DNA of 35,429 bases from a virus (lineage: Duplodnaviria; Heunggongvirae; Uroviricota; Caudoviricetes), in the IMG/VR virus record IMGVR_UViG_2531839330_000011. One strand, given 5' to 3'. Position 1 is the first letter of the stretch. Each line of letters starts with the position of its first letter. A model generated the notes under the pieces. It did not search any database. It saw only the letters and a list, made by a program, of their open reading frames with translations, and was not told the origin of the DNA. Of this stretch, positions 2,456-35,429 are shown in pieces. The position numbers were made by a program, and so were the translations under genes.

Positions 2456-2465
2456 ACAAAAAACC

Positions 2466-2531
2466 TTGACAGGTATCTTTTTTGATACCAAAATGATTTC
2501 ACGAGCTATTAGATGATCACAATATACCACT
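2466..2531 (+). promoter_or_regulatory. Lysis-lysogeny switch region: TTGACA -35 hexamer (2466..2471) immediately followed by perfect palindrome GGTATC-N6-GATACC (2472..2489), a candidate operator and early rightward promoter
   Basis: Read directly from the sequence. Sits in the 76-bp divergent interval between the repressor and the first rightward gene. Confidence 0.5.
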
Positions 2532-2738: not shown

Positions 2739-2754
2739 TCAGGAGGCTAGTGGG

Positions 2755-2958: not shown

Positions 2959-2979
2959 AACAATGAACAGAGCACCATC

Positions 2980-3330
2980 ATGAAAAAAAACGCTAATAAT
3001 CCATACTCCAAATTTCGTAATAGCGTAGAACGCCATGTACACCACGTCGCTACCAGTGCATCACGTAGTAACAGTCGCTATAACCTGAACGAGACGCACG
3101 CAACACCGGATGGCCACGCTGTAAAACAAATCGGCGAGCATGCCTGGCTGATTGAGAAAGCTGGAATCGTGGTCCACAAATGCCCACGCAATCCGTTTAC
3201 CGGAAACCGCATTTTTGCATTGAACTGCGGCGACAATCACTTCGGGCAGGATTTCACATTATACGAAGCACTTCGCACGGTTGATCGTCTGCTTCGCGGG
3301 CAAAGTTTTATTAAACAGGCTGATTTATAA
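2980..3330 (+). CDS. Hypothetical early protein
   Basis: 116-aa ORF in the early rightward operon. No recognisable motif. Confidence 0.45.
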   Translation: MKKNANNPYSKFRNSVERHVHHVATSASRSNSRYNLNETHATPDGHAVKQIGEHAWLIEKAGIVVHKCPRNPFTGNRIFALNCGDNHFGQDFTLYEALRTVDRLLRGQSFIKQADL

Positions 3331-3340
3331 CAGGTGCTTT

Positions 3341-3619
3341 ATGACCAAAGAGCATGCACAAGGTGTATTTATCCGTTTTATTGATTTTCGCGGTGAACTG
3401 TTATTACGCGCATCAGCCATTGACGGAGTTGTTCCATCCGAAAAAAACGCAGCTACTTACGTTTATCTGAACGGTACGCGCCTGACTGTGGAGCTTCCGT
3501 ACCAGACCGTACGAGAAATCATTAGCGAAGCTGAAAAGGCACGTCAGGTTAATGGCGATGAACCCTATATCGAAATTATTTGTATGGATTCAGAAGCTGA
3601 AATTCAGAAAGCAGATTAA
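3341..3619 (+). CDS. Hypothetical early protein
   Basis: ORF 3281..3619 trimmed to the internal ATG at 3341 (MTKEHAQ...) to avoid overlapping the upstream gene. 92 aa. Confidence 0.45.
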   Translation: MTKEHAQGVFIRFIDFRGELLLRASAIDGVVPSEKNAATYVYLNGTRLTVELPYQTVREIISEAEKARQVNGDEPYIEIICMDSEAEIQKAD

Positions 3620-3630
3620 AGGGCGTTGCG

Positions 3631-3873
3631 ATGGGCAAAGAATATAAAACTCTCATTAACAAAGCACTTGAACGATTTTATTTTCGCTTAAGTGCATCAG
3701 GCGCTCATGCTGAACATGCAGCCCGTGACTCATTGACCAGGGCAATCCGGAGTTTGTATGACGTTGCTTTTTACGCTGATGATCTGGATGCACTTAACGA
3801 ACTTTCCGAGCTGATCTGTGCCGCAGAATGCGGGGAACACATTGAACCGTATAAGCTGGGGAATATCGCATGA
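3631..3873 (+). CDS. Hypothetical early protein
   Basis: 80-aa ORF with compact spacing to neighbours. Confidence 0.45.
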   Translation: MGKEYKTLINKALERFYFRLSASGAHAEHAARDSLTRAIRSLYDVAFYADDLDALNELSELICAAECGEHIEPYKLGNIA

Positions 3874-3983
3874 GTATATTTATCTCATGGCTTGTTCTGA
3901 TTATTTCGGTGGCCTGCGCCATTGGGATTATGCGAATTATTCATTCAGTAAAAAAGATTGAACGCTTTTTTACTGACAAATAA
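3870..3983 (+). CDS. Small hydrophobic membrane peptide (37 aa), translationally coupled by ATGA overlap
   Basis: ATG at 3870 overlaps the TGA stop of the upstream ORF. Translation MSIFISWLVLIISVACAIGIMRIIHSVKKIERFFTDK has one predicted TM helix and a basic tail. Not in the supplied ORF track because it is under 60 aa. Confidence 0.4.
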   Translation: MSIFISWLVLIISVACAIGIMRIIHSVKKIERFFTDK

Positions 3984-5289: not shown

Positions 5290-5600
5290 ATGCACACACA
5301 AAAAAACCGCTTGCCATGCCTCAATCGGTCAGGTTACATTTCCGCTGCAGCTCATAAAACGGGTGCCGGGATTCTCAACCCGATACAGAGCAAAGCGCAT
5401 AACCGCGCAAGCGGTTTTTTTGTGCGTACTGTATTGCCACGTCTTTTTCGCGTCAGAATTATGGCGGGGCGTACGGGGCCGACTTCGGTCGGGCCGGATT
5501 CTTTGCTCTCCGGTGTTGAGAACCCTGTACGTCTCGCCACCCCGAGATTCTCAACTCTGGATGGTGAGTTATTTCTATCACCGAGCAAAGAGGCCACACC
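5290..5600 (+). other. Highly structured non-coding segment (candidate ncRNA or terminator/regulatory element)
   Basis: 15-bp perfect inverted repeat AAAAAAACCGCTTGC (5300..5314) / GCAAGCGGTTTTTTT (5407..5421). Local hairpin CCGC-GCAA-GCGG followed by T7. Hairpin GGCCGAC-TTCG-GTCGGGCC near 5478..5497. Repeated ATTCTCAAC motifs at about 5380 and 5548 with an inverted copy near 5514. ORFs called across this interval lack protein-like composition. Confidence 0.35.
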
Positions 5601-9174: not shown

Positions 9175-10134
9175 ATGAAAATTTGTATCGACGACGGCTC
9201 CACCAACATCAAGCTGGCATGGACTGAGAACGGCGAACGCCGCAACGCCATCAGCCCGAACAGCTTCAAGTCGGAATGGTCTGCGCCGTTCGGTGGCACG
9301 CAGCCCGCGAACTACATGCTTGATGGCGTGCGCTATGGTTTTGATCCGGTCAGCGATCGCTTTGTCCAGACGACCGACACGCAATACCAGTACAGCGATG
9401 TGAATGTAATCGCCATTCACCACGCGCTGGTCAAATCAGGCATCACACCACAGGAAGTGGATGTGGTTGTCACCCTGCCACTGAGCGAATATTTCGACAC
9501 AAACGCACAGCCGGACATGGCCAACATCAACCGCAAAAAAGCGAACGTCATGCGCCCGGTGGAGTACCAGAACGGCGAAGCATTCACTATCCGTAACGTA
9601 CGGGTTATGCCTGAATCCATTCCGGCTGGCTTTAAGGCACTGGCTGACATGAGTCCGTTTGAATCCCTGCTGATTGTGGATTTGGGCGGAACCACGCTGG
9701 ATGTGGCAAAGGTTCAGGGGCAACTGGCAGGTATCAGCCAGGTGTTTTGCGATCCACACGTAGGCGTTTCTCTTATGGCAGATGCCGTACTGTCGGTGAT
9801 GGCCACTAACGGTATGCGCACCAGTCACCACATCGCCAATACCATTATCGAACATCGCCATAATGAAGCATGGCTGCGCCAGCACATCCACAATGACGCG
9901 CATTACGCCAGCCTGATGGCGGTTATTCGTGAAAAGGAAGAAACACTGAAACAACGCGTGATCCGCGCGCTGGCGGTTTTTTCGGGTTACGGGCGGGTGA
10001 TGGTTGTCGGTGGCGGGGCGGAGATTGTGGCACCCGCTATCCGCGAAGCCTGCGGAGTTAATGCGACTTTCATCGCGGACGGGGTGCCACAGTTTGCTCT
10101 GGTTAATGGGCTGTACGCAATGGACAAGGAGTAA
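9175..10134 (+). CDS. parM: ParM/StbA-like actin-type ATPase (type II plasmid partition motor homologue), 319 aa
   Basis: Extensive collinear similarity to plasmid R1 ParM as recalled: IDDGSTNIKL, ISPNSFK, QYSDVNV-A-HHAL, NINRKKAN, VMPESIPAG, DLGGTTLD, GGGAE, LVNG. AAGGA RBS before the ATG at 9175. Confidence 0.85.
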   Translation: MKICIDDGSTNIKLAWTENGERRNAISPNSFKSEWSAPFGGTQPANYMLDGVRYGFDPVSDRFVQTTDTQYQYSDVNVIAIHHALVKSGITPQEVDVVVTLPLSEYFDTNAQPDMANINRKKANVMRPVEYQNGEAFTIRNVRVMPESIPAGFKALADMSPFESLLIVDLGGTTLDVAKVQGQLAGISQVFCDPHVGVSLMADAVLSVMATNGMRTSHHIANTIIEHRHNEAWLRQHIHNDAHYASLMAVIREKEETLKQRVIRALAVFSGYGRVMVVGGGAEIVAPAIREACGVNATFIADGVPQFALVNGLYAMDKE

Positions 10135-14368: not shown

Positions 14369-14522
14369 TGCTCCCCCTGAGTAATTACAGGAAGATTACC
14401 CGCGCGCGAAACCGTTCTCCTTAACCCCCTGTTCTGACTGTTTTCTTACAACAAAAGCCCTTTGTATCAGCCTGTTACGCTTTGCCATCATGACTGAAGA
14501 ACCAGTCAGAGGGGCAAAAACT

Positions 14523-19408: not shown

Positions 19409-19559
19409 TACTCCCACATGGGGAAATCTCGGTATATGGGGCGACCGCCTTCTGGATGCACTGGAAACCTGTAACGCGGATAAACGGGCCATTGAATTAC
19501 TGGAACAGCGCAGGCTGCAACGACTGAACAACGAGGATAACAACCATGCTGAAAACTGA
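19269..19559 (+). CDS. o-spanin (Rz1/LysC-like) outer-membrane lipoprotein
   Basis: Lipobox LLTGC after a short signal (MNAPTLYLTLVLLTGCAG). Pro-rich mature region. Overlaps the i-spanin gene out of frame. Confidence 0.65.
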   Translation: MNAPTLYLTLVLLTGCAGTQNAPLPAPSVRLIPQTLTIPVTPPRFPDTPTWGNLGIWGDRLLDALETCNADKRAIELLEQRRLQRLNNEDNNHAEN

Positions 19560-20013
19560 TTCCCTGCGTGAAGCCATGACCCGTTCATGCCGATGGTGTC
19601 AGGCCAACCCGGAAAAATTCACCATTTTCGTGGAGAGCGGCAACATTGAAACGACAGGAGAAACCCCATCGTTTGTTTACCGCTATCAGATGGTGATGTT
19701 TGTCATGGATTACGCCGGGGAGCTGGACGACCTCACGCTGCCGCTGCTGGCGTGGTTATCCGAAAATCAGCCACAGTTGTTGCTCAACCCTGAGCGTAAT
19801 CAGGACATCAAATTCTCCGCCGTTATCAATGACGATGACAGCGCCGATCTCCTGTTTACGCTCCCCCTGCGGGAACGCGTTCGCATCACGCGCAGCAGTC
19901 AGGGCACACCGCAGGCAGAACCCCTGCCGGAGCCAAAACCCCGCCTGCCATCTTCCGAAGGCGACTGGTCGCATGTATTCCAGGATGTGACGTGGGGTGA
20001 AAACGATGGATAA
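19546..20013 (+). CDS. R: Tail completion protein (P2 gpR-like), 155 aa
   Basis: Size identical to P2 R as recalled. Position before S and V. Confidence 0.78.
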   Translation: MLKTDSLREAMTRSCRWCQANPEKFTIFVESGNIETTGETPSFVYRYQMVMFVMDYAGELDDLTLPLLAWLSENQPQLLLNPERNQDIKFSAVINDDDSADLLFTLPLRERVRITRSSQGTPQAEPLPEPKPRLPSSEGDWSHVFQDVTWGENDG

Positions 20014-20641
20014 GGCATTCACCCGCGTGGATGAAACCTTTGAGGCCATCCGCGACAGCCTGAATCAGCAGGCCATCAATAACATCGCCAGAAAGCTGGC
20101 ACAGGATTTACGCCGCGCCCAGCAGGCGCGTATCCGGTCACAGAAAGCGCCGGACGGGACCGCGTGGACACCACGCAGACGCCGCGTAACCCGGATACAG
20201 GAACGCATTCGCTTTATCTGGAATAACGAAGCACGCACGCTGAAAAACTGGCATCACGACACGGGGAAATACGGGCGAACCATTACCGGGTGGGATGAGG
20301 ATAAAAACAATATCCGCACGTTTTACCGGGATGACATCGACCGCTTTCTGGAAATACGCACCCGGCGCATCAACCAGGACAGCACAAAGCGCGTCCCCAT
20401 GTTCGTAAAACTGCGCACCGCCCGCTACCTGAAAGCACGTGCAGATGCTTCCGGTGTGACGGTGGGTTACAGCGGCGTGGCCGCACGTATTGCCCGCGTT
20501 CATCAGTTCGGTGAGCGCGATCAGGTTGCGCCGGGCATTTTCACCGATTACCCGGTACGTGAGCTGCTGGGTATCAGCCAGGCAGATGAGCGCCTGATTT
20601 ATAACACGGTGCTGGGCCGGATTGCGGAGGCTGTACGGTGA
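20006..20641 (+). CDS. S: Tail completion protein (P2 gpS-like)
   Basis: Synteny. Start set at ATG 20006, overlapping the R stop. Confidence 0.7.
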   Translation: MDKAFTRVDETFEAIRDSLNQQAINNIARKLAQDLRRAQQARIRSQKAPDGTAWTPRRRRVTRIQERIRFIWNNEARTLKNWHHDTGKYGRTITGWDEDKNNIRTFYRDDIDRFLEIRTRRINQDSTKRVPMFVKLRTARYLKARADASGVTVGYSGVAARIARVHQFGERDQVAPGIFTDYPVRELLGISQADERLIYNTVLGRIAEAVR

Positions 20642-21219
20642 GCGCAGAACTCATGCGACTGCTGAGCAATATCATCCGCACCGGGATCATCTCTGAAGTT
20701 GATGAGAAGTCCTGGCGCGTGCGCGTTCGCAGCGGCGAACTGGAAACAGGCTGGCTGCGCTGGAACACCACGCGCGCGGGAGCCTTCAATGTGTGGCTGC
20801 CGCCATCACCCGGCGAACAGGTGGTAATTGCCTGCATTGGCGGCAACCCGGAAACCGCCATGATAATTGGCAGCCTGTGGAGTGATGCCAGTCCGGCACC
20901 CGGCAAAAGCCTGAAAGAAATCGTGATCAGCGCGCCGGACGGCGCGGTGTTCCGCTACGACGCGGACGCTGGCGCACTGAGCGCCAGCGGCATGAAAACG
21001 GCCACTTTACAGGCATCCGTCAGTGTGACACTGGACACACCTGTCGTGGAATGCACAGACCTTCTGAGAACAGCGACGATTGACGTCACAAAAGGAGGAA
21101 AGATGAGCGGCAATATCACGCACAGCGGCGGCAACTTCACCTCAAACGGCATTACCGTGCATACGCATAAACACGGTGGCGTGAAAGGCGGCAGCGATTC
21201 GACAGGAGGCCCGCAGTGA
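20638..21219 (+). CDS. V: Baseplate spike/hub protein (P2 gpV-like), 193 aa
   Basis: LLSNIIRTGIISEVD...ETGWLRW...PGEQVVIACIGG...VHTHKHGGV is recognisably P2 gpV-like. Confidence 0.85.
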   Translation: MSAELMRLLSNIIRTGIISEVDEKSWRVRVRSGELETGWLRWNTTRAGAFNVWLPPSPGEQVVIACIGGNPETAMIIGSLWSDASPAPGKSLKEIVISAPDGAVFRYDADAGALSASGMKTATLQASVSVTLDTPVVECTDLLRTATIDVTKGGKMSGNITHSGGNFTSNGITVHTHKHGGVKGGSDSTGGPQ

Positions 21220-22991: not shown

Positions 22992-25319
22992 ATGAGTACC
23001 ACAACACGAAAATTTAAAACCGTTATCACCGATACGGGTGAAAAAAAATTAGCGCAGGCAGCCACACCAGATGGTAAACCGGTCCGCCTGACTCACATGG
23101 CCGTGGGCGACGGTGGCGGCACGTTGCCCACCCCAGACAGTAAGCAGACCCGTCTGGTGCATGAGGTGTGGCGACACACTGTTAATCGCGTCATCCTGGA
23201 CGCAACACATCAGAACCGCATTATTGCGGAGCTGGTTATTCCTCCTGAAACGGGCGGATTCTGGATCCGGGAAATTGGTGTATTTGATGAGCACGGCGAT
23301 TTAATCGCGGTGGGCAATACTGCCGAAAGTTACAAACCAACCGTTGCCGAGGGGTCTGGACGTGCACAAACATTTCGCACCATTCTGACCGTATCCAGCA
23401 CTGCCACCGTGGCGCTTACCGTGGATAACACCATGGTGATGGCCACAGTGGATTACGTGAATGACAAACTGAAAGAGCATGAACAGTCACGACGTCACCC
23501 GGACGCCTCACTGACCGCAAGAGGCTTTGTTCAACTCAGTAGCGCCACCAATAGCACGTCTGAAACGCTTGCGGCAACACCAAAGGCTGTTAAGGCAGCA
23601 TATGACCTGGCTAACGCAAAATATACCGCTCAGGACGCCACGACGGCACGAAAAGGGATAGTCCAGCTCAGTAGTACCACCAACAGCACGTCTGAAACGC
23701 TCGCTGCAACACCAAAAGCGGTAAAAGCAGCATATGACCTTGCTAACGGGAAATATACCGCACAGGACGCTACCACAGCGCGAAAAGGCCTTGTCCAGCT
23801 CAGTAGCGCCACCAACAGCGACTCTGAAACGCTTGCGGCAACGCCAAAGGCGGTTAAGACAGCGTATGACCTTGCTAACGGGAAATACACTGCACAGGAT
23901 GCCACCACGGCGCGAAAAGGGCTTGTCCAGCTCAGTAGTGCCATCAACAGCGATTCTGAAACGCTGGCTGCAACGCCAAAAGCGGTGAAGTCTGCCTATG
24001 ATAATGCTGAAAAACGTCTTCAGAAAGATAAGAACGGTGCGGATATTCCGGGAAAGGATACTTTCACGAAAAATATTGGTGCCTGTCGTGCTTATAGCGG
24101 CGCTTTGAGCACCGAAGGTGGAGACTGGACTACAGCCCAGTTTATTGAGTGGCTTGATTCGGTAGGTGCTTTTAATCACCCATACTGGATGTGTAAAGGC
24201 TCCTGGTCATATGCCAATAATAAACTTATTACCGATACTGGCTGTGGCAATATTCATCTTGCTGGCGCTGTTATTGAGGTAATGGGCATAAAGTCTGCAA
24301 TGACTATTCGTATTACCACACCAACAACATCAAGCGGTGGGGGCGCTACAAGCGCGCAATTTACTTATATTAACCACGGGGACAACTATGCTCCTGGCTG
24401 GCGGCGTGACTGGAACCGTTACGGCGATTCTATGTCTGGAACTATTAATCAGGATAGTGGAAGCCAGAATGCCTATATGTCTACGGCCTTATGTTCAGGC
24501 ACCAGAGGCGGCAAAAAATATCTCAGAAAGTTTCGTGGTGGAGAAGGAGACACTATCTGGCATGAAACAGTACAAGGCGGGGTAATTCGCTGGGCGACAG
24601 GAAACTATGACGCTCAGGAAGAATTATCACTCAGCTCCGCTTATGGTCTCCGTTCAAGAGGTGAGATTACATCACTCAGTGCTAATGGTCTGCGCATTGC
24701 TTATGGCAATTATGGATTCTTTATCAGGAATGATGGCGGCAGCACATATTTAATGCTGACGGCCTCTGGCGATAAATTTGGGGCATGGAACGGCTTAAGA
24801 CCGCTGACTATCAATAACGCCAATGGCGGAGGGTCAATGGGGCATGGCCTGAGTGTTACAGGTGATATTGTCTCAAGTACCAAAGTACGTGCCGGTAGCG
24901 GGAAAAAGTTCACGGTCAGCAGCAGCAATACATCCACGAAGGAAGCCGCATTCAATTTGTGGGGAAACGCAAGTCGTCCGGTGGTGGCTGAATTAGGTGA
25001 TGATGCAGGCTGGCATTTTTACAGTCAGAGAAATACAGATAACAGCATCACTTTTGCTGTTAACGGGCAGGTATCACCATCTAACTATGGCAACTTTGAT
25101 TCACGCTATGTCCGGGATATTAGACTTGGTGGTGCGTCATCCTATAAACCAGCAAATAACGGTACAACATGGACGCATCAGGCTCCATCTGGTTGCGCAT
25201 ATACCGGGATTATCGTTCAGGATACAGGCTCAAACTCTGCCGATAATATTGGTGGTGTTTATTACAGACCAATTCAAAAAAATATTAATGGTACATGGTA
25301 TAACGTATCGAGTGTTTGA
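22992..25319 (+). CDS. H: Tail fibre protein (P2 gpH-like), 775 aa, with internal tandem repeats and a distinct C-terminal receptor-binding region
   Basis: Conserved P2-H-like N-terminus. Four tandem 44-aa repeats (LSSxxNSxSETLAATPKAVKxAYDLAN). C-terminal 430 aa are lower in GC and Gly/Ser/Asn-rich. Confidence 0.9.
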   Translation: MSTTTRKFKTVITDTGEKKLAQAATPDGKPVRLTHMAVGDGGGTLPTPDSKQTRLVHEVWRHTVNRVILDATHQNRIIAELVIPPETGGFWIREIGVFDEHGDLIAVGNTAESYKPTVAEGSGRAQTFRTILTVSSTATVALTVDNTMVMATVDYVNDKLKEHEQSRRHPDASLTARGFVQLSSATNSTSETLAATPKAVKAAYDLANAKYTAQDATTARKGIVQLSSTTNSTSETLAATPKAVKAAYDLANGKYTAQDATTARKGLVQLSSATNSDSETLAATPKAVKTAYDLANGKYTAQDATTARKGLVQLSSAINSDSETLAATPKAVKSAYDNAEKRLQKDKNGADIPGKDTFTKNIGACRAYSGALSTEGGDWTTAQFIEWLDSVGAFNHPYWMCKGSWSYANNKLITDTGCGNIHLAGAVIEVMGIKSAMTIRITTPTTSSGGGATSAQFTYINHGDNYAPGWRRDWNRYGDSMSGTINQDSGSQNAYMSTALCSGTRGGKKYLRKFRGGEGDTIWHETVQGGVIRWATGNYDAQEELSLSSAYGLRSRGEITSLSANGLRIAYGNYGFFIRNDGGSTYLMLTASGDKFGAWNGLRPLTINNANGGGSMGHGLSVTGDIVSSTKVRAGSGKKFTVSSSNTSTKEAAFNLWGNASRPVVAELGDDAGWHFYSQRNTDNSITFAVNGQVSPSNYGNFDSRYVRDIRLGGASSYKPANNGTTWTHQAPSGCAYTGIIVQDTGSNSADNIGGVYYRPIQKNINGTWYNVSSV
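23505..24035 (+). repeat. Four tandem direct repeats of 132 bp inside the tail fibre gene (phage tail-fibre repeat units)
   Basis: GTCCAGCTCAGTAG recurs at 23661, 23793 and 23925, with a diverged first unit at 23529. The encoded peptide repeats are near-identical. Confidence 0.85.
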
Positions 25320-25321
25320 TT

Positions 25322-25855
25322 ATGATGCATTTAAAAAATATAAAACCGGGCAATCCAAAAACAAAAGAACAGTACCTGTTAACTAAAAACTCCGGCGTTG
25401 TCTGGTTATTCGCTGAAGATGGTAAAAACTGGTATGAGGAACAAAAGAACTTTCAGCCAGACACCATAAAGATTGCATATGATGAAAATAATGTCATATG
25501 CGACGTGCAAACGGATGTAACTGCAATTTGCCCGGAAGGAAAAAGTGTTGCCGAGTTGCCTAATATTACAGCAAACCGACGCGCTGATATTTCAGGTAAC
25601 TGGATGTTTAAAGATGGCTCAGTCATTAAACGTGTGTATACCGAAGAAGAGCAACGCTTGCAGGCTGAAAACCAGAAACAAAGGTTATTACAGCAGGCCA
25701 GAGAAAAAACGCAGTTCTGGCAGACCCAGCTTGCATTAGGGATTATCAGTGATTCAGATAAGCAACAACTGATGCGCTGGATGCGGTACGTGCAACAAGT
25801 TGAGACCACTGATACCACTGAATTACCCGTTACGTTCCCTGATCAACCAGAATAA
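25322..25855 (+). CDS. G: Tail fibre assembly chaperone (P2 gpG-like)
   Basis: Near collinear identity to P2 gpG as recalled (MMHLKNI..GNPKTKEQY..LTK...DGKNWYEEQKNFQPDT...ITANRRADISG.WMFKDG.VIKR.YTEEEQR.QAEN.KQ...LPVTFP.QPE). Confidence 0.88.
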   Translation: MMHLKNIKPGNPKTKEQYLLTKNSGVVWLFAEDGKNWYEEQKNFQPDTIKIAYDENNVICDVQTDVTAICPEGKSVAELPNITANRRADISGNWMFKDGSVIKRVYTEEEQRLQAENQKQRLLQQAREKTQFWQTQLALGIISDSDKQQLMRWMRYVQQVETTDTTELPVTFPDQPE

Positions 25856-25857
25856 AC

Positions 25858-25885
25858 GAAAGGCCCGAATATCGGGCCTTATCGT
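25858..25885. terminator. Bidirectional intrinsic terminator between convergent G and U (GGCCCGA-ATA-TCGGGCC, T-rich flank)
   Basis: Perfect 7-bp GC-rich stem read directly. Sits between the two convergent stop codons. Confidence 0.7.
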
Positions 25886-25923
25886 TATTTCTGTTTATCT
25901 AACTATTTGTGATTTGCGTTAAA

Positions 25924-26418
25924 TCAGAACAGTCCCTTAACAGAACTGACCGCACTGTTAAGGGATGACGCCACCTTATCTTTGAAGCCGGACAGCATAT
26001 CGCTGAACGATGAGGATTGCAGGCGCTCCCGCAAATCCTCATCACAGCGTTCAAGGGTCAGTGAAAATTCTATCTTTTTCGCCTTACCGTAGCGATCAAA
26101 CTCGGAACGGGTCGTATTCGTTTCAGTCAGTACATACATTCCGTAAATCTGCCCGACGCCATCAATCAAAGGCCAGGGTCGTCCTGTATACGCCTGCGTG
26201 GTCAGCAGCGACAGCGACACTTCGCCACCTGTAATTTCAGGATAAAGCACACCAGAAAGAACGATGCGATCATCCCCTGCACCGATATACTGCCAGCTTG
26301 CTGAACGGTTAACGCGTTCATTTTTCACATGCCGCCAGCTTTTGTTTTGCTGTAACTGCTGATGCGGCAGCGTGCGCAGCTCAAAAACAAACATGCCGTA
26401 GATCATCATCATGGCCAT
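25924..26418 (-). CDS. U: Tail protein U (P2 gpU-like), 164 aa
   Basis: Similarity to P2 gpU as recalled (FVF.LRT.P.Q.LQ...W.....RVNR.....GVLYPEITGG). Downstream of T. Confidence 0.82.
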   Translation of the reverse strand: MAMMMIYGMFVFELRTLPHQQLQQNKSWRHVKNERVNRSASWQYIGAGDDRIVLSGVLYPEITGGEVSLSLLTTQAYTGRPWPLIDGVGQIYGMYVLTETNTTRSEFDRYGKAKKIEFSLTLERCDEDLRERLQSSSFSDMLSGFKDKVASSLNSAVSSVKGLF

Positions 26419-26424
26419 GACTCC

Positions 26425-29247
26425 TCAATCTTTATCGTAAAAACTGCCACGCCCGGCACGGGCGCGCCGTTCCATTTCTGCCCTGACCATTTCACCGACC
26501 AGTTTCGCCAGTTCGCGGGGATTCTGCGTAACAACGTTATGCAGATGAACATGAATTTCACCGCCAAATCCGGAGGCAACAGGCTCCCGGTTACGGGAAG
26601 TTGCAGGAACTGATGCCACTGGCGATCGTATGGCCTCTGCCACCGGGCGGGAGCTGGCCGCAACAACAGGGACCAGCGCCGGAGGCAGCGGAGCCGGAAC
26701 CACAGGTGTGATATTAATTGCGGGGGCAGGCTTACTGCCCTGCGCAATCTTCCGCTCCTGCCACTCCCCACGAACAGCAAGTGCGCGGGGCAGGTTCTTA
26801 AAGACAATATCGCCGGGGCCAATGCGTTTTTTCGTCTCATCAACCAGCTTACCTGTGTTATCAGCAATTTTGCTGAGTCTGCGTAGCGTCCCGGTATTGC
26901 TGTCTGTGAGCGGTTTATTGTCTTTGGGTTTATCGCCTTTTTTGTCGTCGACCTTATCTGACGGGGCCGGGCCGGGAGTCCATGGTTTCTGAACCATTTT
27001 CTTGAGAACCGGATCCCATTCCCACATTACAGGAGCCTTTGAAGCGTTCTCTATTTTCTTTCTCGCCCGTTCCGCTTCATCCGGAAGCACTCCGAGCTTT
27101 TCAAGTATCCACGCCAGTGAATCCATCAATGCTTTTGTTGGCGTCAGGACAAGCTCTATCGCTCCACCGAGTACCCTGCCGAATACCTCGCCAGCACTGG
27201 TACATTTATCCAGCGTTTCCTTGCTGGACTCCATCGGTGACAGCAGCGATTTAAACCAGTTAAAGACCTGAATGATCCCATCGCGCACGACATCAAAAAC
27301 AGGACCGAACCGTTCAAAGGTTTCGCGCAACGGAGCCAGCCGTTCCATAATCCCACTGAACACCCCTGCATAAAACGCCTTGATGGGTTCCCAGTATTTC
27401 CAGATGAGAACCGCCGCAGCCACAAACGCAGCAGCAATCAATCCGACCGGGCTGAACAGCGCCCCGATAGCGCCCCCCAGTAACGAAACGGAACCTGTCA
27501 CCATTCCCCATAGCGCTGGCAGGAGCCTGACAGCATTCATTGATCCGGTCAGGAGGGAAAAACCAAGACGCAGTTTTGCCAGTGGGCCAGCAAGCACACC
27601 AATAGCCAGCGACAACGAGCCTATGGTTGCAGTCATTGCCAGCAGAGCACCGCCTGCAACCAGTAGCTGGCGCGTCAGTGCCGGATGGGCCTGCGCCAGC
27701 GCCGTCACCTTCGATACCACCCGCGTGAGCCACTGCGTGACAGAACGCAGCGGACCGTCAATCAGATCTGCAATGCGGATGCGCAACCCTTCCCATGCAC
27801 TGCCGAGTGATTTCAGATCGCCGTCAAGGTTGTTGGCCATAACCTTTGCTGTGCGTTCAGCCTCACCGCGCGCGCCTTCAAGTTCTTTTCTCAGTTTGGG
27901 TAAGGAACCGTCCCCCGCTGCATCAACGAGGGCCATAAATGATGTGAAAGCCTCTTCTCCGGCAATGTCCTTAAAGAACGATACCCGGTCAACTTCCCCG
28001 TATTTGCGGGTAGCTTTATAAAGGTCAGCCAGCACATCCTCCATCGGGCGCATTTTGCCCCCGGCATCCGAGACGGACACGCCCAGCTCTTTCAGAGCTT
28101 CTGCCGCCGCCTTTGGCGGTGATGCCAGACGAGCCAGGCTGGCACGCATTGCCGTACCGGCATCACTCCCCCTGATGCCCATATTCGCCAGCACGCCCGC
28201 CATAGCTGCGGCCTGCTCCAGCGATATTCCCAGCTTACCCGCCACCGGACCTGCATATTTCATGGTTTCGCCCAGTGCGCGAAGGTCAGTGTTGGTACGG
28301 GTAAACGCTGCGGTGAGCGTGTCACCGACCCGGTCCATCTGGTCAGCAGAAAGGCCGAACTGCGTCAGGATATTTGAGCCAATATCCGCCGTCTCGCCGA
28401 GATCCATACCGCCAGCCGTTGCCATGCTCAGCACGCCGGGAAGCGCAGCCTGAATGGCCTGCGGAGTGAAGCCAGCCATTGCAAGAAATGCCTGCCCACT
28501 GGCGGCATCGCCTGCGGTGAACTGCGTTTCAGAGCCAAGTTTTAACGCCTGCTCACGCAGCGCCTTAAACTGCGGGCTGTTTTTGTCGATTCGCGTCAGT
28601 GCCTGAACGCGGGACATCTCTTTCCCGAACCCGATCGCGGGCTGCAAAAAACGCCCGGCAGCATAGCCGCCCGCCGCTGCCGCACCAATTGCCAGCGCAC
28701 CACCTGTTTTCAGTTTTCCCGCGGTTTCCTGCGCGCGCGAATACCGCTCACGCGCACGTGTTACACGCGCAAGCGCCTGCCGTTCGCGTTCAAGCTGGTT
28801 GTTGTACTGTTCGGCGCGTCTGATGGCCTGCTGGATGGTGTTATCGCTGCCTGTCAGGGAAATGCCGTGGCGTTTCAGCTCTCCGCCAAGCTCCCGCATT
28901 TTCTGAATTTCCCGTGTGCGCGATTCATTCAGGCGTTCAAGCCGGGTGCTTAACTGCTGCATCAGCTTTTGTTGCTTTTCGCTGAGCACTGTACCCGTGC
29001 GTTGTAACTGATTAAGGGCGTTAAGCTGGCGTCGTGCTTTCACGATACCCGCATCCGCTTTACTGACAGCGTCGCGGGCGCGCTCAAATGAACGCGCCTG
29101 ACGCTCGAGATTTTTGATCGCCCCCTGCGTTCGCTGGATGGAGTCACCAAACTGCCCCATCAGGCGGCGGGCGTTTTCGGCAGGCCGGGTCAGCCTGTCA
29201 ACGGCGCTGAAAGCGACCCGGATATCAAGAGTCTTCATTATCTGCAT
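26425..29247 (-). CDS. T: Tail tape measure protein (P2 gpT-like), 940 aa
   Basis: Long coiled-coil N-terminal half, central hydrophobic Gly/Ala-rich segment, large size. Sits between E/E' and U. Confidence 0.9.
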   Translation of the reverse strand: MQIMKTLDIRVAFSAVDRLTRPAENARRLMGQFGDSIQRTQGAIKNLERQARSFERARDAVSKADAGIVKARRQLNALNQLQRTGTVLSEKQQKLMQQLSTRLERLNESRTREIQKMRELGGELKRHGISLTGSDNTIQQAIRRAEQYNNQLERERQALARVTRARERYSRAQETAGKLKTGGALAIGAAAAGGYAAGRFLQPAIGFGKEMSRVQALTRIDKNSPQFKALREQALKLGSETQFTAGDAASGQAFLAMAGFTPQAIQAALPGVLSMATAGGMDLGETADIGSNILTQFGLSADQMDRVGDTLTAAFTRTNTDLRALGETMKYAGPVAGKLGISLEQAAAMAGVLANMGIRGSDAGTAMRASLARLASPPKAAAEALKELGVSVSDAGGKMRPMEDVLADLYKATRKYGEVDRVSFFKDIAGEEAFTSFMALVDAAGDGSLPKLRKELEGARGEAERTAKVMANNLDGDLKSLGSAWEGLRIRIADLIDGPLRSVTQWLTRVVSKVTALAQAHPALTRQLLVAGGALLAMTATIGSLSLAIGVLAGPLAKLRLGFSLLTGSMNAVRLLPALWGMVTGSVSLLGGAIGALFSPVGLIAAAFVAAAVLIWKYWEPIKAFYAGVFSGIMERLAPLRETFERFGPVFDVVRDGIIQVFNWFKSLLSPMESSKETLDKCTSAGEVFGRVLGGAIELVLTPTKALMDSLAWILEKLGVLPDEAERARKKIENASKAPVMWEWDPVLKKMVQKPWTPGPAPSDKVDDKKGDKPKDNKPLTDSNTGTLRRLSKIADNTGKLVDETKKRIGPGDIVFKNLPRALAVRGEWQERKIAQGSKPAPAINITPVVPAPLPPALVPVVAASSRPVAEAIRSPVASVPATSRNREPVASGFGGEIHVHLHNVVTQNPRELAKLVGEMVRAEMERRARAGRGSFYDKD

Positions 29248-29763
29248 TCCCGCTGCGAAGTGCCGCCCGCTCGCGCCAGCTAACCACTTCGCCGGGCGTC
29301 ATCATGAAGATTTCGGCGGGCGACCAGTTAAAAATGGCGGCAATATCCGCCACCAGATCTTCGATGTGCTCAAAGCACACCAGGGTGATTACGCTGCCGT
29401 CTCCTGTACGCTCTTCGCGCCAGAGTCTGGCTCGCTCATAAAATTTACAGCCACAGCGCACAACTGAATAAAATCGCGTGACGACATTTTTTTAATCATC
29501 ACTTCATCCAGTCGTGGCGAGGTCACGCGAGGCAACAGCGTAAACATGGTATCCGCTTTCAGATTCAGCACATCAGACAGCGACAGACCACGCAGGGATC
29601 CAGCCTGCTCAATAGCCCCGGTGATCTCCACATACGTGATTTTTTCGCCACCACGCTCAATTGGTCGGGTCAGTTTTACGCCCCGTTCGACAGCCATATC
29701 CTCACCTGCCGTCACATCATCCGCCACGGTGTTATTCCGGGTTTCAGTATCGATGTCTTTCAT
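29225..29763 (-). CDS. E': Tail assembly chaperone E+E' produced by programmed -1 frameshift
   Basis: The -1 frame ORF 29225..29461 continues in protein-like sequence from the slippery heptamer A_AAT_TTT (minus strand, plus coordinates 29440..29446). Predicted junction is ...AVAVNF then YERARLW.... The end overlaps the T start as in P2. Confidence 0.65.
29389..29763 (-). CDS. E: Tail assembly chaperone E (P2 gpE-like), 124 aa
   Basis: Position between the tail tube and tape measure genes. Contains the slippery site for E'. Confidence 0.8.
   Translation of the reverse strand: MKDIDTETRNNTVADDVTAGEDMAVERGVKLTRPIERGGEKITYVEITGAIEQAGSLRGLSLSDVLNLKADTMFTLLPRVTSPRLDEVMIKKMSSRDFIQLCAVAVNFMSEPDSGAKSVQETAA
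29440..29446 (-). other. Candidate -1 ribosomal frameshift heptamer AAATTTT (X_XXY_YYZ) for E/E'
   Basis: Read directly. Phase is correct relative to the E reading frame (GTA AAT TTT). Confidence 0.55.
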
Positions 29764-29818
29764 CAGTTGTCTCCTTTTCAGTCAGAGGCGACGCACTGCG
29801 CCGCCTGCATATTACTTA

Positions 29819-30331
29819 TCAGCCAAGCCCAAGCGCGGAACGGATACGGTCAGGCACGATGTCCTTGCCGTCCTTCCGGTAAATGAAGTTCAGCAGGTCA
29901 ATCTCCCACAACGGGCGATCGTTAACACTCAGCTTGTAGTAGGTGTTTTTAATGGCGTAAGTGTGTGATGTGGCTTCGCCCTGTTTGGCTTCCCCCATAT
30001 CAATTTCCGTCACACGTCCGCGCATTTCGACTTCATACAGGTCGCTTTCTGCATCGGTGTAGTATTCACCCGCAAAACGCAGCAGCGTGCCGTCAATCGT
30101 GCCGCCATACTTAAGGAACAGCTCACGAACTGCGCCCCCCATGACAAAGCTCGCATCAAGCGCGGAGTCGTCCAGACCGAGATCAATACTTACCGCACCC
30201 ATCATGCCACCACCCCGGTAGCTGTCGGTTTTGCGCGTCAGCTTAGGCAGAGTGACGGACGTCACCTTACCCACTTCGTTTTCACCATCCACAAACAGCG
30301 TAAAAAAGCGAAGATGTTTTGGTACAGCCAT
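29819..30331 (-). CDS. FII: Tail tube protein (P2 gpFII-like), 170 aa
   Basis: Size and position. Start overlaps the FI stop. Confidence 0.88.
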   Translation of the reverse strand: MAVPKHLRFFTLFVDGENEVGKVTSVTLPKLTRKTDSYRGGGMMGAVSIDLGLDDSALDASFVMGGAVRELFLKYGGTIDGTLLRFAGEYYTDAESDLYEVEMRGRVTEIDMGEAKQGEATSHTYAIKNTYYKLSVNDRPLWEIDLLNFIYRKDGKDIVPDRIRSALGLG

Positions 30332-31515
30332 CAGGCACCTCCCAGCACCGCAAATGCGGGACCAAAGAATTCATCAGTAAACGACTGGTAAAGCTCCATG
30401 TCTTCCAGCGGGGGAACAGGCGTATATTTGTAGCGAATACGCACACGCCCCTGACGTAAATCCGTGGTGCTGTTATCCACCACGTCATACCAGCACTCCG
30501 CGCCAATCAGTTTCCCGGCAGTAACCAGTGAGTCCAGTTTTGCCCTGATGGCACTGATAACATCCTTCACGTTCGCAGGCGTCAGTGGACTGTCGATGGT
30601 TTCAAACTGCGCTTCCGCAATTGAATCAGCCAGCACCTGTGCGGTTCGGGTATACACCTCAAAGATGTAGGCGTTCGTTTCCGGTGTGCGGTTGCCCCAG
30701 AAGCGGAACCCGTTGCGACGAATAATGGTCGTGATTTCTTTGTTGTTGAGGCTGTTGGCATCGCTGTCTTCGGCCTGCAACGACCAGAACACATGCCTCG
30801 ACATCCCCAGCACATTTTTAACCGGAACGTTGGACAGTGATTTGTGCCAGCCCTGCTCATGGTCAATGTACGCACGAAGGCCGCACGCATAGGCAGGCGC
30901 GGGGAACGTTTCGTTTTTGCCACTTTTCGGGTTGTAGGCAATGAAGTCAGGCCATAAGAGCATCACCTCACGTTCGTTGAATTTCTGGCGGTAGGTAATC
31001 GCCTCAGCCATCGTGTTACAGCCGTGACATGAGGCATACACAAACGCGCGCAATTTACCCGCAATCACGCACAGGGATTTTGTCACCGCCTCCGTATCCA
31101 GCTCCGGCGCGGCCAGAATACGCGGACGGTATCCGATGCTTTCATCCTGCTCTGCAACAAGCAGCGCATACATCCCCGTATAGCTGCCGTCATCCTCAGA
31201 ACCACCGATAACCAGTTGATCCTGCGTCTTTCCGTCTTCTTCTTTGTGTTCAGCCACGCGAACGACGATCACCTTTGTGCTCACCTGGTCTGCGATGGCC
31301 TTAAGCGCACGATAAAGCGTCCCCGTTGTTCCGCATTTTCCCAGCACGTCATTGACGCGGGTCAGCAGTGTGGGCTTGTTCAGCGGGAACAGCTTCGCGT
31401 CCGCATCATCCGCCGTTGCCACGATACCGATAACGCTGGAATCAACATCGTTAATCGCTGTTACCAGGTCGGTATTTTCCGTAACACGGGCACCATGAAA
31501 ACGAGTTTCACTCAT
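30331..31515 (-). CDS. FI: Contractile tail sheath protein (P2 gpFI-like), 394 aa
   Basis: Collinear similarity to P2 gpFI as recalled (FPLNKP, KLRAF.Y, YRQ.F..RE.M..WPDF, IDHEQGWHK.LSNV, RRNGFRFWGNRT, YTRTAQV.AD, YTPVPPLE). Confidence 0.93.
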   Translation of the reverse strand: MSETRFHGARVTENTDLVTAINDVDSSVIGIVATADDADAKLFPLNKPTLLTRVNDVLGKCGTTGTLYRALKAIADQVSTKVIVVRVAEHKEEDGKTQDQLVIGGSEDDGSYTGMYALLVAEQDESIGYRPRILAAPELDTEAVTKSLCVIAGKLRAFVYASCHGCNTMAEAITYRQKFNEREVMLLWPDFIAYNPKSGKNETFPAPAYACGLRAYIDHEQGWHKSLSNVPVKNVLGMSRHVFWSLQAEDSDANSLNNKEITTIIRRNGFRFWGNRTPETNAYIFEVYTRTAQVLADSIAEAQFETIDSPLTPANVKDVISAIRAKLDSLVTAGKLIGAECWYDVVDNSTTDLRQGRVRIRYKYTPVPPLEDMELYQSFTDEFFGPAFAVLGGA

Positions 31516-31672
31516 AGCTTCAGCCCCTTGTATCCGTTAAATGATTCAGCAACAATCATCACCCACCACGCGCGTAATCTCACCCCTGCGCTATTCTCCC
31601 GCCATGGCGACAACAAAAAGCAGTAACCCACTCCGCACGCACATGCGACCATGCCGCACAGGGAGGGAACAG

Positions 31673-32782
31673 ATGACCGACACCACCATGCAATTGCTCA
31701 GTCAGGGCACAGACCCCGTGAAAATGCCGGATTTTGATATTCTCGCGGAGGGTAAAACGCTGTCCGGCGTGGCAGAGCGCCTGATGAGCCTGTCGCTGAC
31801 CGACAACCGGGGATTTGAGGCGGACCAGCTCACCATCACGCTGGATGATGCCGATGGCCAGTTGCAGCTACCGCCACGGGGCGCGCGTCTGACGGTTCTC
31901 ATTGGCTGGAAGGGAGAACCGCTGACAGAAAAAGGCACTTACATTGTTGATGAAATCGCTCACGAAGGACCGCCGGACAGGCTGACTGTTTCAGCCAGAA
32001 GCGCAGATTTTCGGGATGAATTTAACGTTAAACGTGAGGTGTCCTGGCATGATGTGACCGTTGAGCGTGTGGTATCCGCCATCGCTCATCGGTACGGTCT
32101 GAAACCGCAAATCAGCGAAATGCTGATGGATATCGAAATCGACCACGCCGACCAGACCGAAGAAAGCGACATGTCCTTTCTTACGCGCATGGCGGAAATG
32201 CTGGGCGCAATCACCACGGTAAAAAGCGGTAATCTGTTATTCATTATGCCAGGCGGTGGCGTGAACGCACAGGGCCAGCCGTTGCCATCGTTCGCCATCA
32301 CGCGCAGCAGTGGCGATCGCCATCAGTTCCGCATTGCTGACCGCGAAGCGTATACGGGGGTACGCGCTTACTGGCTTGATCTTAATTACGGGAAAAAGAA
32401 AAAAGTCAGCGTGAAACGCCGCAAACCGCCAAAACCCAAAAAGGAGAAAAGCAGCAGCCGTGAAGGTGATTATATGGAAGGTGCGGAAGGCAATGTGTTT
32501 GTGTTACGCAAGACTTATCAGAACGAGCAGGCAGCAAGACGCGCAGCGGCGGCAAAGTGGCAACAACTACAACGCGGAGCCGCATCATTCTCCATCACGC
32601 TGGCACGTGGACGAGCAGAACTCTACCCCGAAATGCATGGCACGGTAACAGGATTTAAAAGCGAGATTGATAATCAGGACTGGATTATTGCAAAAGCCGA
32701 GCACACCATTGATAACAGCGGCTTTACCACGCAGCTTGAGCTTGAGGCAAAAATCCCGGAATGGATAGCGGAAACAGAGTGA
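31673..32782 (+). CDS. D: Late control / tail protein D (P2 gpD-like)
   Basis: SLTDNRGFEADQL, SARSADFR and WHD motifs typical of the phage gpD family. Start set at ATG 31673 with GGGAGGG RBS. Confidence 0.88.
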   Translation: MTDTTMQLLSQGTDPVKMPDFDILAEGKTLSGVAERLMSLSLTDNRGFEADQLTITLDDADGQLQLPPRGARLTVLIGWKGEPLTEKGTYIVDEIAHEGPPDRLTVSARSADFRDEFNVKREVSWHDVTVERVVSAIAHRYGLKPQISEMLMDIEIDHADQTEESDMSFLTRMAEMLGAITTVKSGNLLFIMPGGGVNAQGQPLPSFAITRSSGDRHQFRIADREAYTGVRAYWLDLNYGKKKKVSVKRRKPPKPKKEKSSSREGDYMEGAEGNVFVLRKTYQNEQAARRAAAAKWQQLQRGAASFSITLARGRAELYPEMHGTVTGFKSEIDNQDWIIAKAEHTIDNSGFTTQLELEAKIPEWIAETE

Positions 32783-32824
32783 GCAACTTAGAATAGCGGC
32801 AGCACCACGTTAAAGGAGGTCGCT

Positions 32825-33085
32825 ATGTTCCGTTGTCCGCTTTGTGGCGCATCTGCCCGTATCCGCACCAGTCGTCCGGAAAATGATTCAAACACCGTGC
32901 GGCAAAAGTATTACCAGTGTAACAACCTGGAATGCGGCGTATGCTTCTCAACACTGGAAGCTTTCCATAAATTCACATCGAAACACGCCTCCGGCGTTCA
33001 CTCATCAGAAGGTATCCCGTGGCATGAGCTGCCAGCTTCACACAGGGGAAACAATCAGATGAGTTTGCCTTTACCTCAGAATTAA
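32825..33085 (+). CDS. ogr: Ogr/Delta-type zinc-finger late transcription activator
   Basis: MFRCPLCGASARIRTSRP...YYQCNNLECGVCF is a Cys4 zinc finger of the P2 Ogr family. Terminal position in the prophage, as in P2. Confidence 0.85.
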   Translation: MFRCPLCGASARIRTSRPENDSNTVRQKYYQCNNLECGVCFSTLEAFHKFTSKHASGVHSSEGIPWHELPASHRGNNQMSLPLPQN

Positions 33086-33108
33086 CAGGCAGAATTGCCG
33101 GAGTAACA

Positions 33109-33228
33109 AAAAAGCGATAGATTACGTGCGGGTGCCTTTCGGCTGATGGTCGGAGGGAATACCCGAAGGCCGGATGTGGAAAGGCCCCGGAAAACATTTC
33201 TGTTTAACCGAGGCCCTAACCCGTCAAC
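33109..33228 (+). repeat. Copy A of a roughly 100-120 bp element (imperfect direct repeat of 34121..34228), immediately upstream of the hok-like gene
   Basis: By-eye alignment of the two copies, about 70-75% identity, with shared core GTTTAACC-AGGCCCTA (33202..33218 versus 34205..34221). Confidence 0.5.
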
Positions 33229-33274
33229 CTAGCAAGTGATAGGTTAGCGCCTCTCCAACAAAGGAGCAAGCGCT

Positions 33275-33415
33275 ATGTCGCAAAAATCGCTTACGGCCAT
33301 CACGTTCTGCGTGACGGTAATCCTCATCATCTGGATGCTGCACGGTTCGCTGTGTGAAATACGGATGAGCTTCTGGGGAGCGGAGTTTGCGGCGTTCTTA
33401 CAGTGTAAGCAGTAA
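33275..33415 (+). CDS. Hok/Gef-family type I toxin (small membrane peptide), 46 aa
   Basis: MSQKSLTAITFCVTVILIIWMLHGSLCEIRMSFWGAEFAAFLQCKQ has one TM helix followed by the Hok signature SLCEIR and ...AAF.... AAGGAG RBS 9 nt upstream. Not in the supplied ORF track because it is under 60 aa. Confidence 0.7.
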   Translation: MSQKSLTAITFCVTVILIIWMLHGSLCEIRMSFWGAEFAAFLQCKQ

Positions 33416-33503
33416 GGAAACCGCGACGGGGAGGCAACTCCCCGTCAATCGGTTGCCGGGGTAAGGCCGATAAGGCACCCTATCTCATAGGCATGAATAA
33501 CAA

Positions 33504-33536
33504 CCCCGCAGCGTAAAAACTGCGGGGTTTCTTTTT
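33504..33536 (+). terminator. Rho-independent terminator (CCCCGCAG-loop-CTGCGGGG plus T-run)
   Basis: 8-bp GC stem and TTTCTTTTT tract downstream of the hok-like gene. Confidence 0.75.
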
Positions 33537-33604
33537 GGAACTCTCACTAGCTAGTGAGCCGTTAACTGCACATAATGCTCGCACAACAAATCAGTTAAAA
33601 GAGA

Positions 33605-34426: not shown

Positions 34427-34513
34427 TGGTACCCGGAGCGGGACTTGAACCCGCACAGCGCGAACGCCGAGGGATTTTAAATCCCTTGTGTCTACCGATT
34501 CCACCATCCGGGC
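34427..34513 (-). tRNA. leuZ: tRNA-Leu (anticodon UAA)
   Basis: Reverse complement GCCCGGATGGTGGAATCGGTAGACACAAGGGATTTAAAATCCCTCGGCG...GGGTACCA matches E. coli leuZ as recalled, with long variable arm and encoded CCA. Confidence 0.93.
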
Positions 34514-34525
34514 TCGGGAAGAAAG

Positions 34526-34599
34526 TGGAGGCGCGTTCCGGAGTCGAACCGGACTAGACGGATTTGCAATCCGCTACATAACCGCTTTGTTAACGCGCC
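34526..34599 (-). tRNA. cysT: tRNA-Cys (anticodon GCA)
   Basis: Reverse complement GGCGCGTTAACAAAGCGGTTATGTAGCGGATTGCAAATCCGTCTAGTCCGGTTCGACTCCGGAACGCGCCTCCA matches E. coli cysT as recalled. Confidence 0.93.
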
Positions 34600-34653
34600 A
34601 AATTCTTCAGGCCTTTCAGCCAGACATCCGCTTGAGGCCGATGTCTTTTAAAC

Positions 34654-34729
<76 letters not shown>

Positions 34730-34880
34730 ATTCATCAAGCAATCAGTTAATCACTTGATTTTATTATCGTCTGGCAATCAGTGCCGCCGTTCGATGCGTT
34801 GCATTCTACTTACCTGGCGCGATGAGTCAACGATATTTTTCACCACTTTTGATCGTTTGCTGAAAATTACGCCGAAACGA

Positions 34881-35429
34881 TCACTGATCAAGCAAATCTG
34901 CACGCGCAGCGCTCAAATATTGCAACATTGACCACAGAGTCAGTACCGCAGCCACAAAGAAAAGTGCAATACCGGCGTACTCAACCCAAATGTTCGGACG
35001 CCACAGCAGCCAGGCCAACGCCACCATCTGGGCAGTGGTTTTCACTTTCCCAATCCAGGAGACAGCCACGCTACTGCGTTTACCCAACTCCGCCATCCAT
35101 TCGCGTAGCGCAGAAATAATAATTTCACGGGCGATCATCGTTGCCGCCGGTAAGGTCACCCACCAGCTGTGATAATGCTCGGTTACCAGCACCATGGCGA
35201 TAGCCACGAGAACTTTATCTGCGACAGGGTCAAGGAAAGCACCAAACCGGGTACTCTGGTTCCAGCGGCGTGCCAGAAAACCATCGAACCAGTCAGTCAC
35301 CGCCGCGACGCAGAAAATGAGCGCGGCGGCAAACGGCGACCAGGTGACAGGCAGATAAAAGACCAATACAAAGAATGGGATAAGGATGACACGGAACAGT
35401 GTAAGCAACGTAGGGATATTAAATTGCAT
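34881..35429 (-). CDS. pgsA: CDP-diacylglycerol--glycerol-3-phosphate 3-phosphatidyltransferase (host housekeeping gene)
   Basis: 182-aa multi-TM protein with the CDP-alcohol phosphotransferase motif ([10 protein letters not shown]...[10 protein letters not shown]). Gene order pgsA-glyW-cysT-leuZ is the E. coli arrangement. Start codon at the last bases of the window. Confidence 0.9.

Follow-up and report, generated by a model that had tools for sequence, protein, structure and literature searches.

What is to be made of a P2-like prophage in which the tail genes FI to U run against both of their neighbours, G and D, and not along with them as in P2? The question is raised by a 35,429-nucleotide stretch of DNA (IMG/VR record IMGVR_UViG_2531839330_000011; the whole stretch is called the window here), which nucleotide identity places among the P88-like prophages of the genus Xuanwuvirus, Peduoviridae. 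We observe that the inversion of the FI-to-U block is real and fixed, and that it is the normal gene order of the P88-type lineage. It quite probably goes back to a single ancient inversion that carried the late promoter of the block along with it, became fixed in the clade and left the FI/D interval acting as a bidirectional promoter dependent on the late activator Ogr.

Orientation and occurrence of the FI-to-U block

The genes concerned, as found with a list of open reading frames (ORFs) and Pfam, are the following.

25316-25855, plus strand: G, tail fibre assembly (ORF list; Caudo_TAP, 5.8e-33)
25924-26418, minus strand: U, tail protein, last gene of the block (Phage_P2_GpU, 5.6e-39)
26425-29247, minus strand: T, tape measure protein (PhageMin_Tail, 3.6e-58)
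29389-29763, minus strand: E (weak match to Phage_TAC_7, 4.7e-4, 20.6 bits against a cut-off of 25)
29225-29763, minus strand: predicted E+E' product of a -1 frameshift, 179 amino acids, ending at 29225 (frame analysis)
29819-30331, minus strand: FII, tail tube (Phage_tube, 7.5e-47)
30331-31515, minus strand: FI, tail sheath, first gene of the block (Phage_sheath_1, Gp18_domIII_N and Phage_sheath_1C)
31673-32782, plus strand: D, baseplate hub / late control D protein (Phage_GPD, 4.2e-17)
32825-33085, plus strand: ogr-like gene for a zinc-finger late activator (Ogr_Delta, 5.1e-14)

Homologues of FI, FII, E, T, U and D are clustered here with an Ogr/Delta zinc-finger activator, as in a Peduoviridae late tail module, and all members of the module except E pass the curated Pfam cut-offs. 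With respect to E, a canonical -1 slippery heptamer (A_AAT_TTT, 29446-29440) stands in the correct frame near the end of the gene, and the -1 frame stays open to 29225, overlapping the start of T by 23 nucleotides (nt); this arrangement would allow an E/E+E' -1 frameshift of the kind annotated in P2 (NC_001895). The annotation of P88 gives the E' part as a separate ORF of 51 amino acids. For D, the longest ORF opens at 31541, and an ATG at 31673 has a strong ribosome-binding site (AGGGAGGG) upstream; this ATG, equivalent to the annotated start in P88, is the likely start of the gene, which sets the FI/D interval at 31516-31672, the 157 base pairs (bp) given in the first-pass annotation.

In the P2 reference (NC_001895), V-W-J-I-H-G is followed by a terminator, by fun(Z) on the other strand, and by the promoter pF with FI-FII-E/E'-T-U-D-ogr on the strand of V to G; U ends at the base where D begins. 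The first-pass annotation had described P2 in the same way, as one operon from FI through U to D, co-directional with V to G and with U abutting D. The window does not follow this canonical order: G, the final gene of the rightward O-to-G late transcription unit, converges on U, the genes U-T-E/E'-FII-FI occupy the minus strand, and FI diverges from D and ogr on the plus strand. The claim that FI to U is inverted as a unit, with the orientation of D and ogr kept, is confirmed by the ORF layout, by Pfam and by comparison with the P2 reference. Compared with the P2 F operon (FI-FII-E-E'-T-U-D, transcribed from pF), the genes and their internal order are the same, a putative E/E' frameshift signal is retained and an Ogr-family activator gene follows D; unlike in P2, where a single promoter serves FI through D, the window has a separate divergent D-ogr unit.

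The inverted order is ordinary for the P88-type lineage. Positions 25913-33200 of the window share 95-96.5% nucleotide identity with Escherichia phages P88, P884B11, 520873 and PhiR44_2 and with Citrobacter phage PhiSM, and the same Xuanwuvirus phages cover 76-88% of positions 1-25000 at 95.6-96.0% identity. Since genera are delimited by the international committee for virus taxonomy (ICTV) at about 70% identity genome-wide, the window falls within Xuanwuvirus on genome-wide nucleotide identity, with a deviating tail-fibre region. The D protein is 97-99.7% identical to those of P88 and Xuanwuvirus P884B11. P88 has the same divergent arrangement of FI (minus) and D (plus), the same 157-bp interval, and in it the same dyad and hexamers described below; in its RefSeq annotation D is on the strand opposite to the one shared by U, T, E', E, FII and FI. 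The FI/D junction (window 31000-32200) is contiguous, at no less than 95% identity, in 1109 of 5426 complete Escherichia coli genomes, and the exact junction of G, terminator and U is found in 28 complete genomes. At least 11 phage records carry the same inverted order, among them the viable P88 and PhiSM, and the arrangement is functional because these viable phages carry it: induction yielded P88, which lyses E. coli strains, and PhiSM shows spontaneous activity (PMC5285337, PMC6456863). Two of the Escherichia phage records, 520873 and 503458 (NC_049344.1 and NC_049341.1), contain IS100 (IS21-family) insertions in the region matching T to FI and are probably defective copies recorded as phages.

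To see how far the inversion extends, we aligned the D protein against one genome per bacterial species and then ran local tblastn with the tail proteins of the window. The loci fall into two order classes, 64 inverted and 16 of P2 type, with no exceptions to a split by identity to the window: inverted loci have D at 61% or more and FI at 53.6% or more, P2-type loci have D at 53.7% or less and FI at 50.6% or less. Sixty of the inverted loci lie in genomes of about 28 Enterobacterales genera (including Salmonella, Serratia, Erwinia, Pantoea, Klebsiella, Xenorhabdus, Photorhabdus, Providencia, Yersinia and Morganella). Five more loci yielded no FI match, some of them at a contig end, and in them U immediately precedes a D of the same orientation. 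One locus, on a 226-kb contig of 'Vagococcus sp. WN89Y' (NZ_JBQPOM010000071.1), is 96-100% identical to the E. coli-type prophage of the window in several tail proteins and ogr, and this assembly with its Gram-positive label is probably contaminated or mislabelled.

Four ICTV genera have the inverted order, namely Xuanwuvirus, Novemvirus, Reginaelenavirus and Senquatrovirus. The block is annotated as inverted in Salmonella phage SEN5 (Senquatrovirus), Klebsiella phage 3LV2017 (Reginaelenavirus) and Enterobacter phage phiT5282H (Novemvirus), and tblastn with FI and D finds it inverted in Serratia phage KSP20 as well. Like the window, phiT5282H, 3LV2017, SEN4/SEN5 and KSP20 combine the inverted block with a divergent FI/D interval containing one dyad; they differ in their hosts, in their cargo between G and U and in their proteins (FI 55-75%, D 63-77% identical).

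The FI/D interval as a predicted bidirectional late promoter

When the FI/D intervals of five phages, representing four genera, are aligned, conserved islands stand out in otherwise diverged sequence (mean column identity, 61%), and one of these islands has the form T(G/C)T-N12-ACA. TGT-N12-ACA is the consensus of the four Ogr-dependent late promoters of P2 (PMC3931495, citing Christie and Calendar 1985 and Julien and Calendar 1995). The elements discussed in this section are listed below, together with the dyad between P and O, which serves as an internal comparator.

31595-31612, both strands, centre 31603.5: TCT-N12-ACA dyad (TCTCCCGCCATGGCGACA, then ACAAAAAGC), predicted Ogr-type activator site
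31560 to 31555, minus strand: GATGAT, predicted -10 of pFI
31644-31652, plus strand: TGcGACCAT (hexamer 31647-31652), predicted extended -10 of pD
14433-14450, both strands, centre 14441.5: P/O dyad, TCT-N12-ACA (ACAAAAGC), with the motif TCT-N12-ACAACAAAAGC in common with FI/D

In 58 of 65 FI/D intervals an exact dyad is found, and its position hardly varies. Among 57 distinct intervals the left half-site is TGT in 36 and TCT in 21, with 42 different N12 spacers; conserved half-sites around a free spacer are what is expected of a protein-binding dyad. When these 57 sequences were anchored on the dyad without gaps, hexamers resembling -10 elements emerged on both sides at exact mirror positions, 43.5-48.5 bp from the dyad centre. 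On the pFI side, A at position 2 and T at position 6 occur together in 96% of the intervals, and on the pD side in 89%, with TGn preceding the pD hexamer in 34 of the 57; at any other offset within 12 bp either way the same pair is found in at most 19%. Placed 7 nt downstream of each hexamer, the predicted transcript starts fall at about 31548 (minus) and about 31659 (plus), 111 bp apart and 55.5 bp to either side of the dyad centre.

A scan of positions 25000-33600 for sigma-70 promoters gave none in the FI/D interval and one weak match inside D. Like a P2-type late promoter, the interval has a recognisable -10 (conserved nAnnAT on both sides) and no sigma-70 -35 match; its dyad has one mismatch to TGT-N12-ACA and stands 55.5 bp from starts that are predicted, not mapped. 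Exact TGT-N12-ACA gave three matches in the window, fewer than chance expects and all outside late intergenic regions. In this lineage the left half-site is TCT, as emerged from the alignment of relatives. The proposal of the first-pass annotation that D must have its own promoter within the 157 bp gains support from the conserved activator-type dyad and the putative extended -10 facing D.

Between the -10 elements and the dyad, conserved tCAcGc (31581-31586) and CGCGCG runs occur in both late divergent intervals (31570-31591 in FI/D), and these lie outside a simple promoter model. A candidate motif common to P/O and FI/D, CGCGCG followed by TAATCT, was dropped: G+C-rich runs upstream of the -10 explain part of it, and the TAATCT copy in FI/D is not in a promoter-compatible position.

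The P/O interval offers a comparison within the same genome. The 9-mer ACAACAAAA occurs only twice in the window, once in FI/D and once in P/O. The P/O dyad is flanked on the pP side by TAATCT (14398 to 14393) at the same spacing as in FI/D, and on the pO side by TGcCATCAT (14483-14491), one base further out. We also observe that in each of five genomes the P/O dyad and the FI/D dyad have the same left half-site variant (TCT in both for the window, P88 and phiT5282H; TGT in both for 3LV2017 and SEN5; one P/O dyad each), as expected if both sites are read by a single activator encoded in the genome. The annotated starts of pP and pO in P2, at 3016 and 3127, are likewise 111 bp apart and 55.5 bp to either side of a TGT-N12-CCA at 3063-3080. 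P2 pP/pO and the window's FI/D interval are alike in having two divergent late units, one central dyad and the same geometry, predicted in the case of FI/D. They differ in that pP/pO was mapped experimentally and drives head genes, whereas the FI/D version is deduced and concerns tail genes, and in their half-sites (TGT on the left and CCA, not the consensus ACA, on the right in P2; TCT on the left in the window). For the scaffold gene O, the longest ORF opens at 14490, and a second ATG at 14523 with GAGGGG upstream fits the annotated P88 start; O probably begins in reality at 14523, a position downstream of the pO transcript start predicted at about 14498.

A separate V promoter was not found in the window, where the genes S and V overlap and no dyad is found in the gap of 137 bp before R (19409-19545). 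P2 (pV) and SEN5, unlike the window, have a TGT-N12-ACA dyad and a GATACT hexamer at the standard spacing upstream of V. Candidates for the transcription of R to G in Xuanwuvirus (window 19409-21219) are one long O-to-G unit or a promoter inside coding sequence.

The scheme we propose is the following. Of the two breakpoints, one would separate the F promoter from the terminator of the V operon and the second would fall between U and D, so that the segment FI-FII-E/E'-T-U would have been turned together with its upstream late promoter, and the activator site of the F promoter would have landed beside D. Because this site is a dyad, its relocation would give D an activator site in one step, with both directions served; D would then need only a ribosome-binding site and a suitably spaced -10, candidates for both of which are present and conserved. 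The single central T(G/C)T-N12-ACA dyad, built like P2 pP/pO, would serve both pFI and pD. Leftward transcription of FI to U would start at about 31548 and run to a bidirectional terminator (25860-25880), and D-ogr would be read rightward from about 31659. We lean, with some reserve, towards regarding this as a fifth kind of P2-family late promoter, a putative bidirectional pFI/pD of one-step origin in which one Ogr-type dyad would activate transcription of the tail sheath and of the baseplate hub in opposite directions, and TCT or TGT would track the Ogr specificity of the lineage.

Several points weigh against this scheme. The left half-site in the window is TCT and not the canonical TGT, and Ogr-type binding to TCT is putative; the leader predicted for pD is short in the window, at about 13 nt, and longer in other genera; and seven of the 65 intervals lack an exact dyad match, mismatched versions being outside the count. 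The 57 sequences are related by descent, and their conservation is partly inherited, though divergence has affected spacers and flanks. Both the transcript starts and the dependence on Ogr are deduced from sequence geometry alone, and the claim of a single event is based on identity classes and a few outgroups. It is nevertheless rather unlikely that the inversion is real and fixed while the promoter model is wrong, with separate activator sites, an Ogr-independent D promoter, such as a constitutive or early one, or a dyad working in one direction. Such a case could draw on the sigma-70 promoter that ogr itself has in P2, which means that activator-independent expression exists in this region of P2, on the off-consensus TCT half-site, and on the conserved tCAcGc and CGCGCG runs that the model does not account for. 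Against it, the interval has one conserved dyad only and no sigma-70 consensus match, both -10-like hexamers keep exact mirror spacing over 57 sequences, and the geometry is identical to that of the mapped P2 pP/pO and to the window's own P/O interval.

Polarity of the inversion and the G/U junction

The simplest reading of the distribution is one ancient, fixed inversion in the ancestor of the clade, with the P2 order ancestral. The reverse polarity, in which divergent FI/D would be ancestral and the single F operon of P2 derived, could appeal to a pP/pO-like symmetry that might in principle be old. We hold it to be very improbable: FI to U and D are co-directional in P2, in all 16 of the more distant Enterobacterales loci, and in the outgroups Pseudomonas Citexvirus, Mannheimia Baylorvirus and Vibrio Vhmlvirus, where they also follow the direction of the baseplate genes. 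In Burkholderia phages KS5, KS14 and KL3 the genes D, U, T, E and FII are numbered consecutively, and these outgroups likewise keep the P2 order (PMC3091744). With the co-directional order so widespread, parsimony would demand many independent reversions. A published precedent for P2-like phages tolerating rearranged late operons is Stenotrophomonas phage Smp131, in which these operons are reshuffled and each is still preceded by a TGT-N12-ACA-like site; there, unlike in the window, genes have been swapped between the V and F operons and FI to U is not inverted (PMC3931495).

At the other end of the block, G and U converge across a gap of 68 bp (25856-25923). Two features of this region are relevant here.

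25860-25880, both strands: predicted bidirectional intrinsic terminator hairpin, with a perfect 9-bp G+C-rich stem and T-runs on both strands (terminator scan)
22992-25319, plus strand: H, tail fibre (ORF list, Pfam)

The folded terminator RNA reaches -22.4 kcal/mol on the plus and -26.8 kcal/mol on the minus strand (z-scores, -5.7 and -6.1; none of 200 shuffles equally stable), and the hairpin suits termination of both convergent units. The first-pass annotation had taken the G-to-FI position, which carries Z/fun in P2, to be reduced to a terminator. This holds insofar as the G/U junction of the window contains a terminator alone; the G-to-FI slot as such, however, is gone after the inversion, and relatives carry cargo between G and U. 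P88 and others have there a DNA invertase together with a cassette of alternative tail-fibre and chaperone genes (compared at 1272-3976 of locus L001 for P88), unlike the window, which lacks the cassette; the convergent junction therefore behaves as a cargo hot spot. The window also differs from P88 in its distal tail fibre and G (24800-25912), which are nearer to Yersinia phage fibres (78-95% identity over short stretches).

The invertase of P88 raises the thought of a programmed invertible segment, in which a site-specific invertase would flip the FI-to-U block to and fro. In favour, the invertase and alternative tail-fibre genes of P88 lie between G and U, adjoining U, and the tail-fibre segments of P1/P7-type phages are invertible. 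By analogy with P1/P7, however, the P88 enzyme, which adjoins alternative fibre and fibre-assembly genes outside the tail block, probably acts there and not on FI to U. The window has no invertase ORF at its G/U junction, and a search of positions 25300-32000 found no inverted repeats linking 25856-25923 with 31516-31672, only the terminator palindrome and short chance pairs. Repeats at the junctions that could mediate inversion, which the first-pass annotation had suggested looking for, are thus absent, as expected for an old, fixed event. Moreover, all 64 clade loci show one orientation, and in the reverse orientation FI would be cut off from the promoter interval and D would have none. The marks of a Gin/Cin/Hin-type segment (crossover repeats, an adjacent invertase, a second orientation among relatives) are all missing, and we regard this explanation as extremely improbable.

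Misassembly of the record, for which nothing speaks beyond the deviation from P2, can be dismissed as practically negligible in probability, since the FI/D junction recurs in the 1109 complete E. coli genomes and the G/U junction in 28, the order is shared by independently sequenced phages of four genera and by 60 loci from other species, and no junction repeats able to confuse an assembler are present; of the two options left by the first-pass annotation, genuine lineage rearrangement stands and assembly inversion falls.

Wider context of the prophage and meaning of the inversion

The ORF map and Pfam give the window an overall P2-type layout, with int at 1-1002 (minus), early genes, A at 6276-9098 (plus), Q and P (minus) and O to G (plus). 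At its far end, 34427-35429 (minus), genes for tRNA-Leu(taa), tRNA-Cys(gca) and tRNA-Gly(gcc) and a pgsA-like gene for a CDP-alcohol phosphatidyltransferase probably represent host flank, the prophage having apparently integrated beside the tRNA-Leu gene. In the early region, Rfam finds the Hfq-binding RNA isrK (5347-5421, 59.5 bits) with a C4 antisense RNA (5457-5544, 78.5 bits) immediately after it, a pair known from antirepressor control of the P1/P7 type; the early region of P88 has a gene annotated 'derepression protein' between its lipoprotein gene and gene A. Directly after the A replication gene stands a ParM/StbA-type gene for an actin-like plasmid segregation protein (9175-10134), and at this position P88 is annotated with ParM and a partition protein, odd cargo for an integrating P2-like phage.

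At the level of data, the arrangement is already known, being contained in classified phage genomes made public over the last ten years and in roughly one fifth of complete E. coli genomes. In the literature searched we found no discussion of the inversion or of a bidirectional FI/D promoter, though a survey of P2-like prophages outside that literature may describe the inversion, and the papers on P88, PhiSM, SEN4/5, Serratia PP4 and the Xenorhabdus tailocin make no mention of the inversion.

As a clean shared derived trait, the inversion marks off a deep clade of Enterobacterales P2-like phages, to which at least Xuanwuvirus, Novemvirus, Reginaelenavirus and Senquatrovirus belong, from P2, 186 and relatives further away. 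It may provide a quick marker for taxonomy or annotation, and flagging it as a misassembly would be wrong; the practical consequences are otherwise small. With respect to the biology of the family, the locus would illustrate neatly how an activator site with dyad symmetry allows an operon to be broken up and turned round while co-regulation is kept. A concrete prediction on late transcription, and one that is simple to test, also follows for the P88-type phages carried by about one in five complete E. coli genomes.

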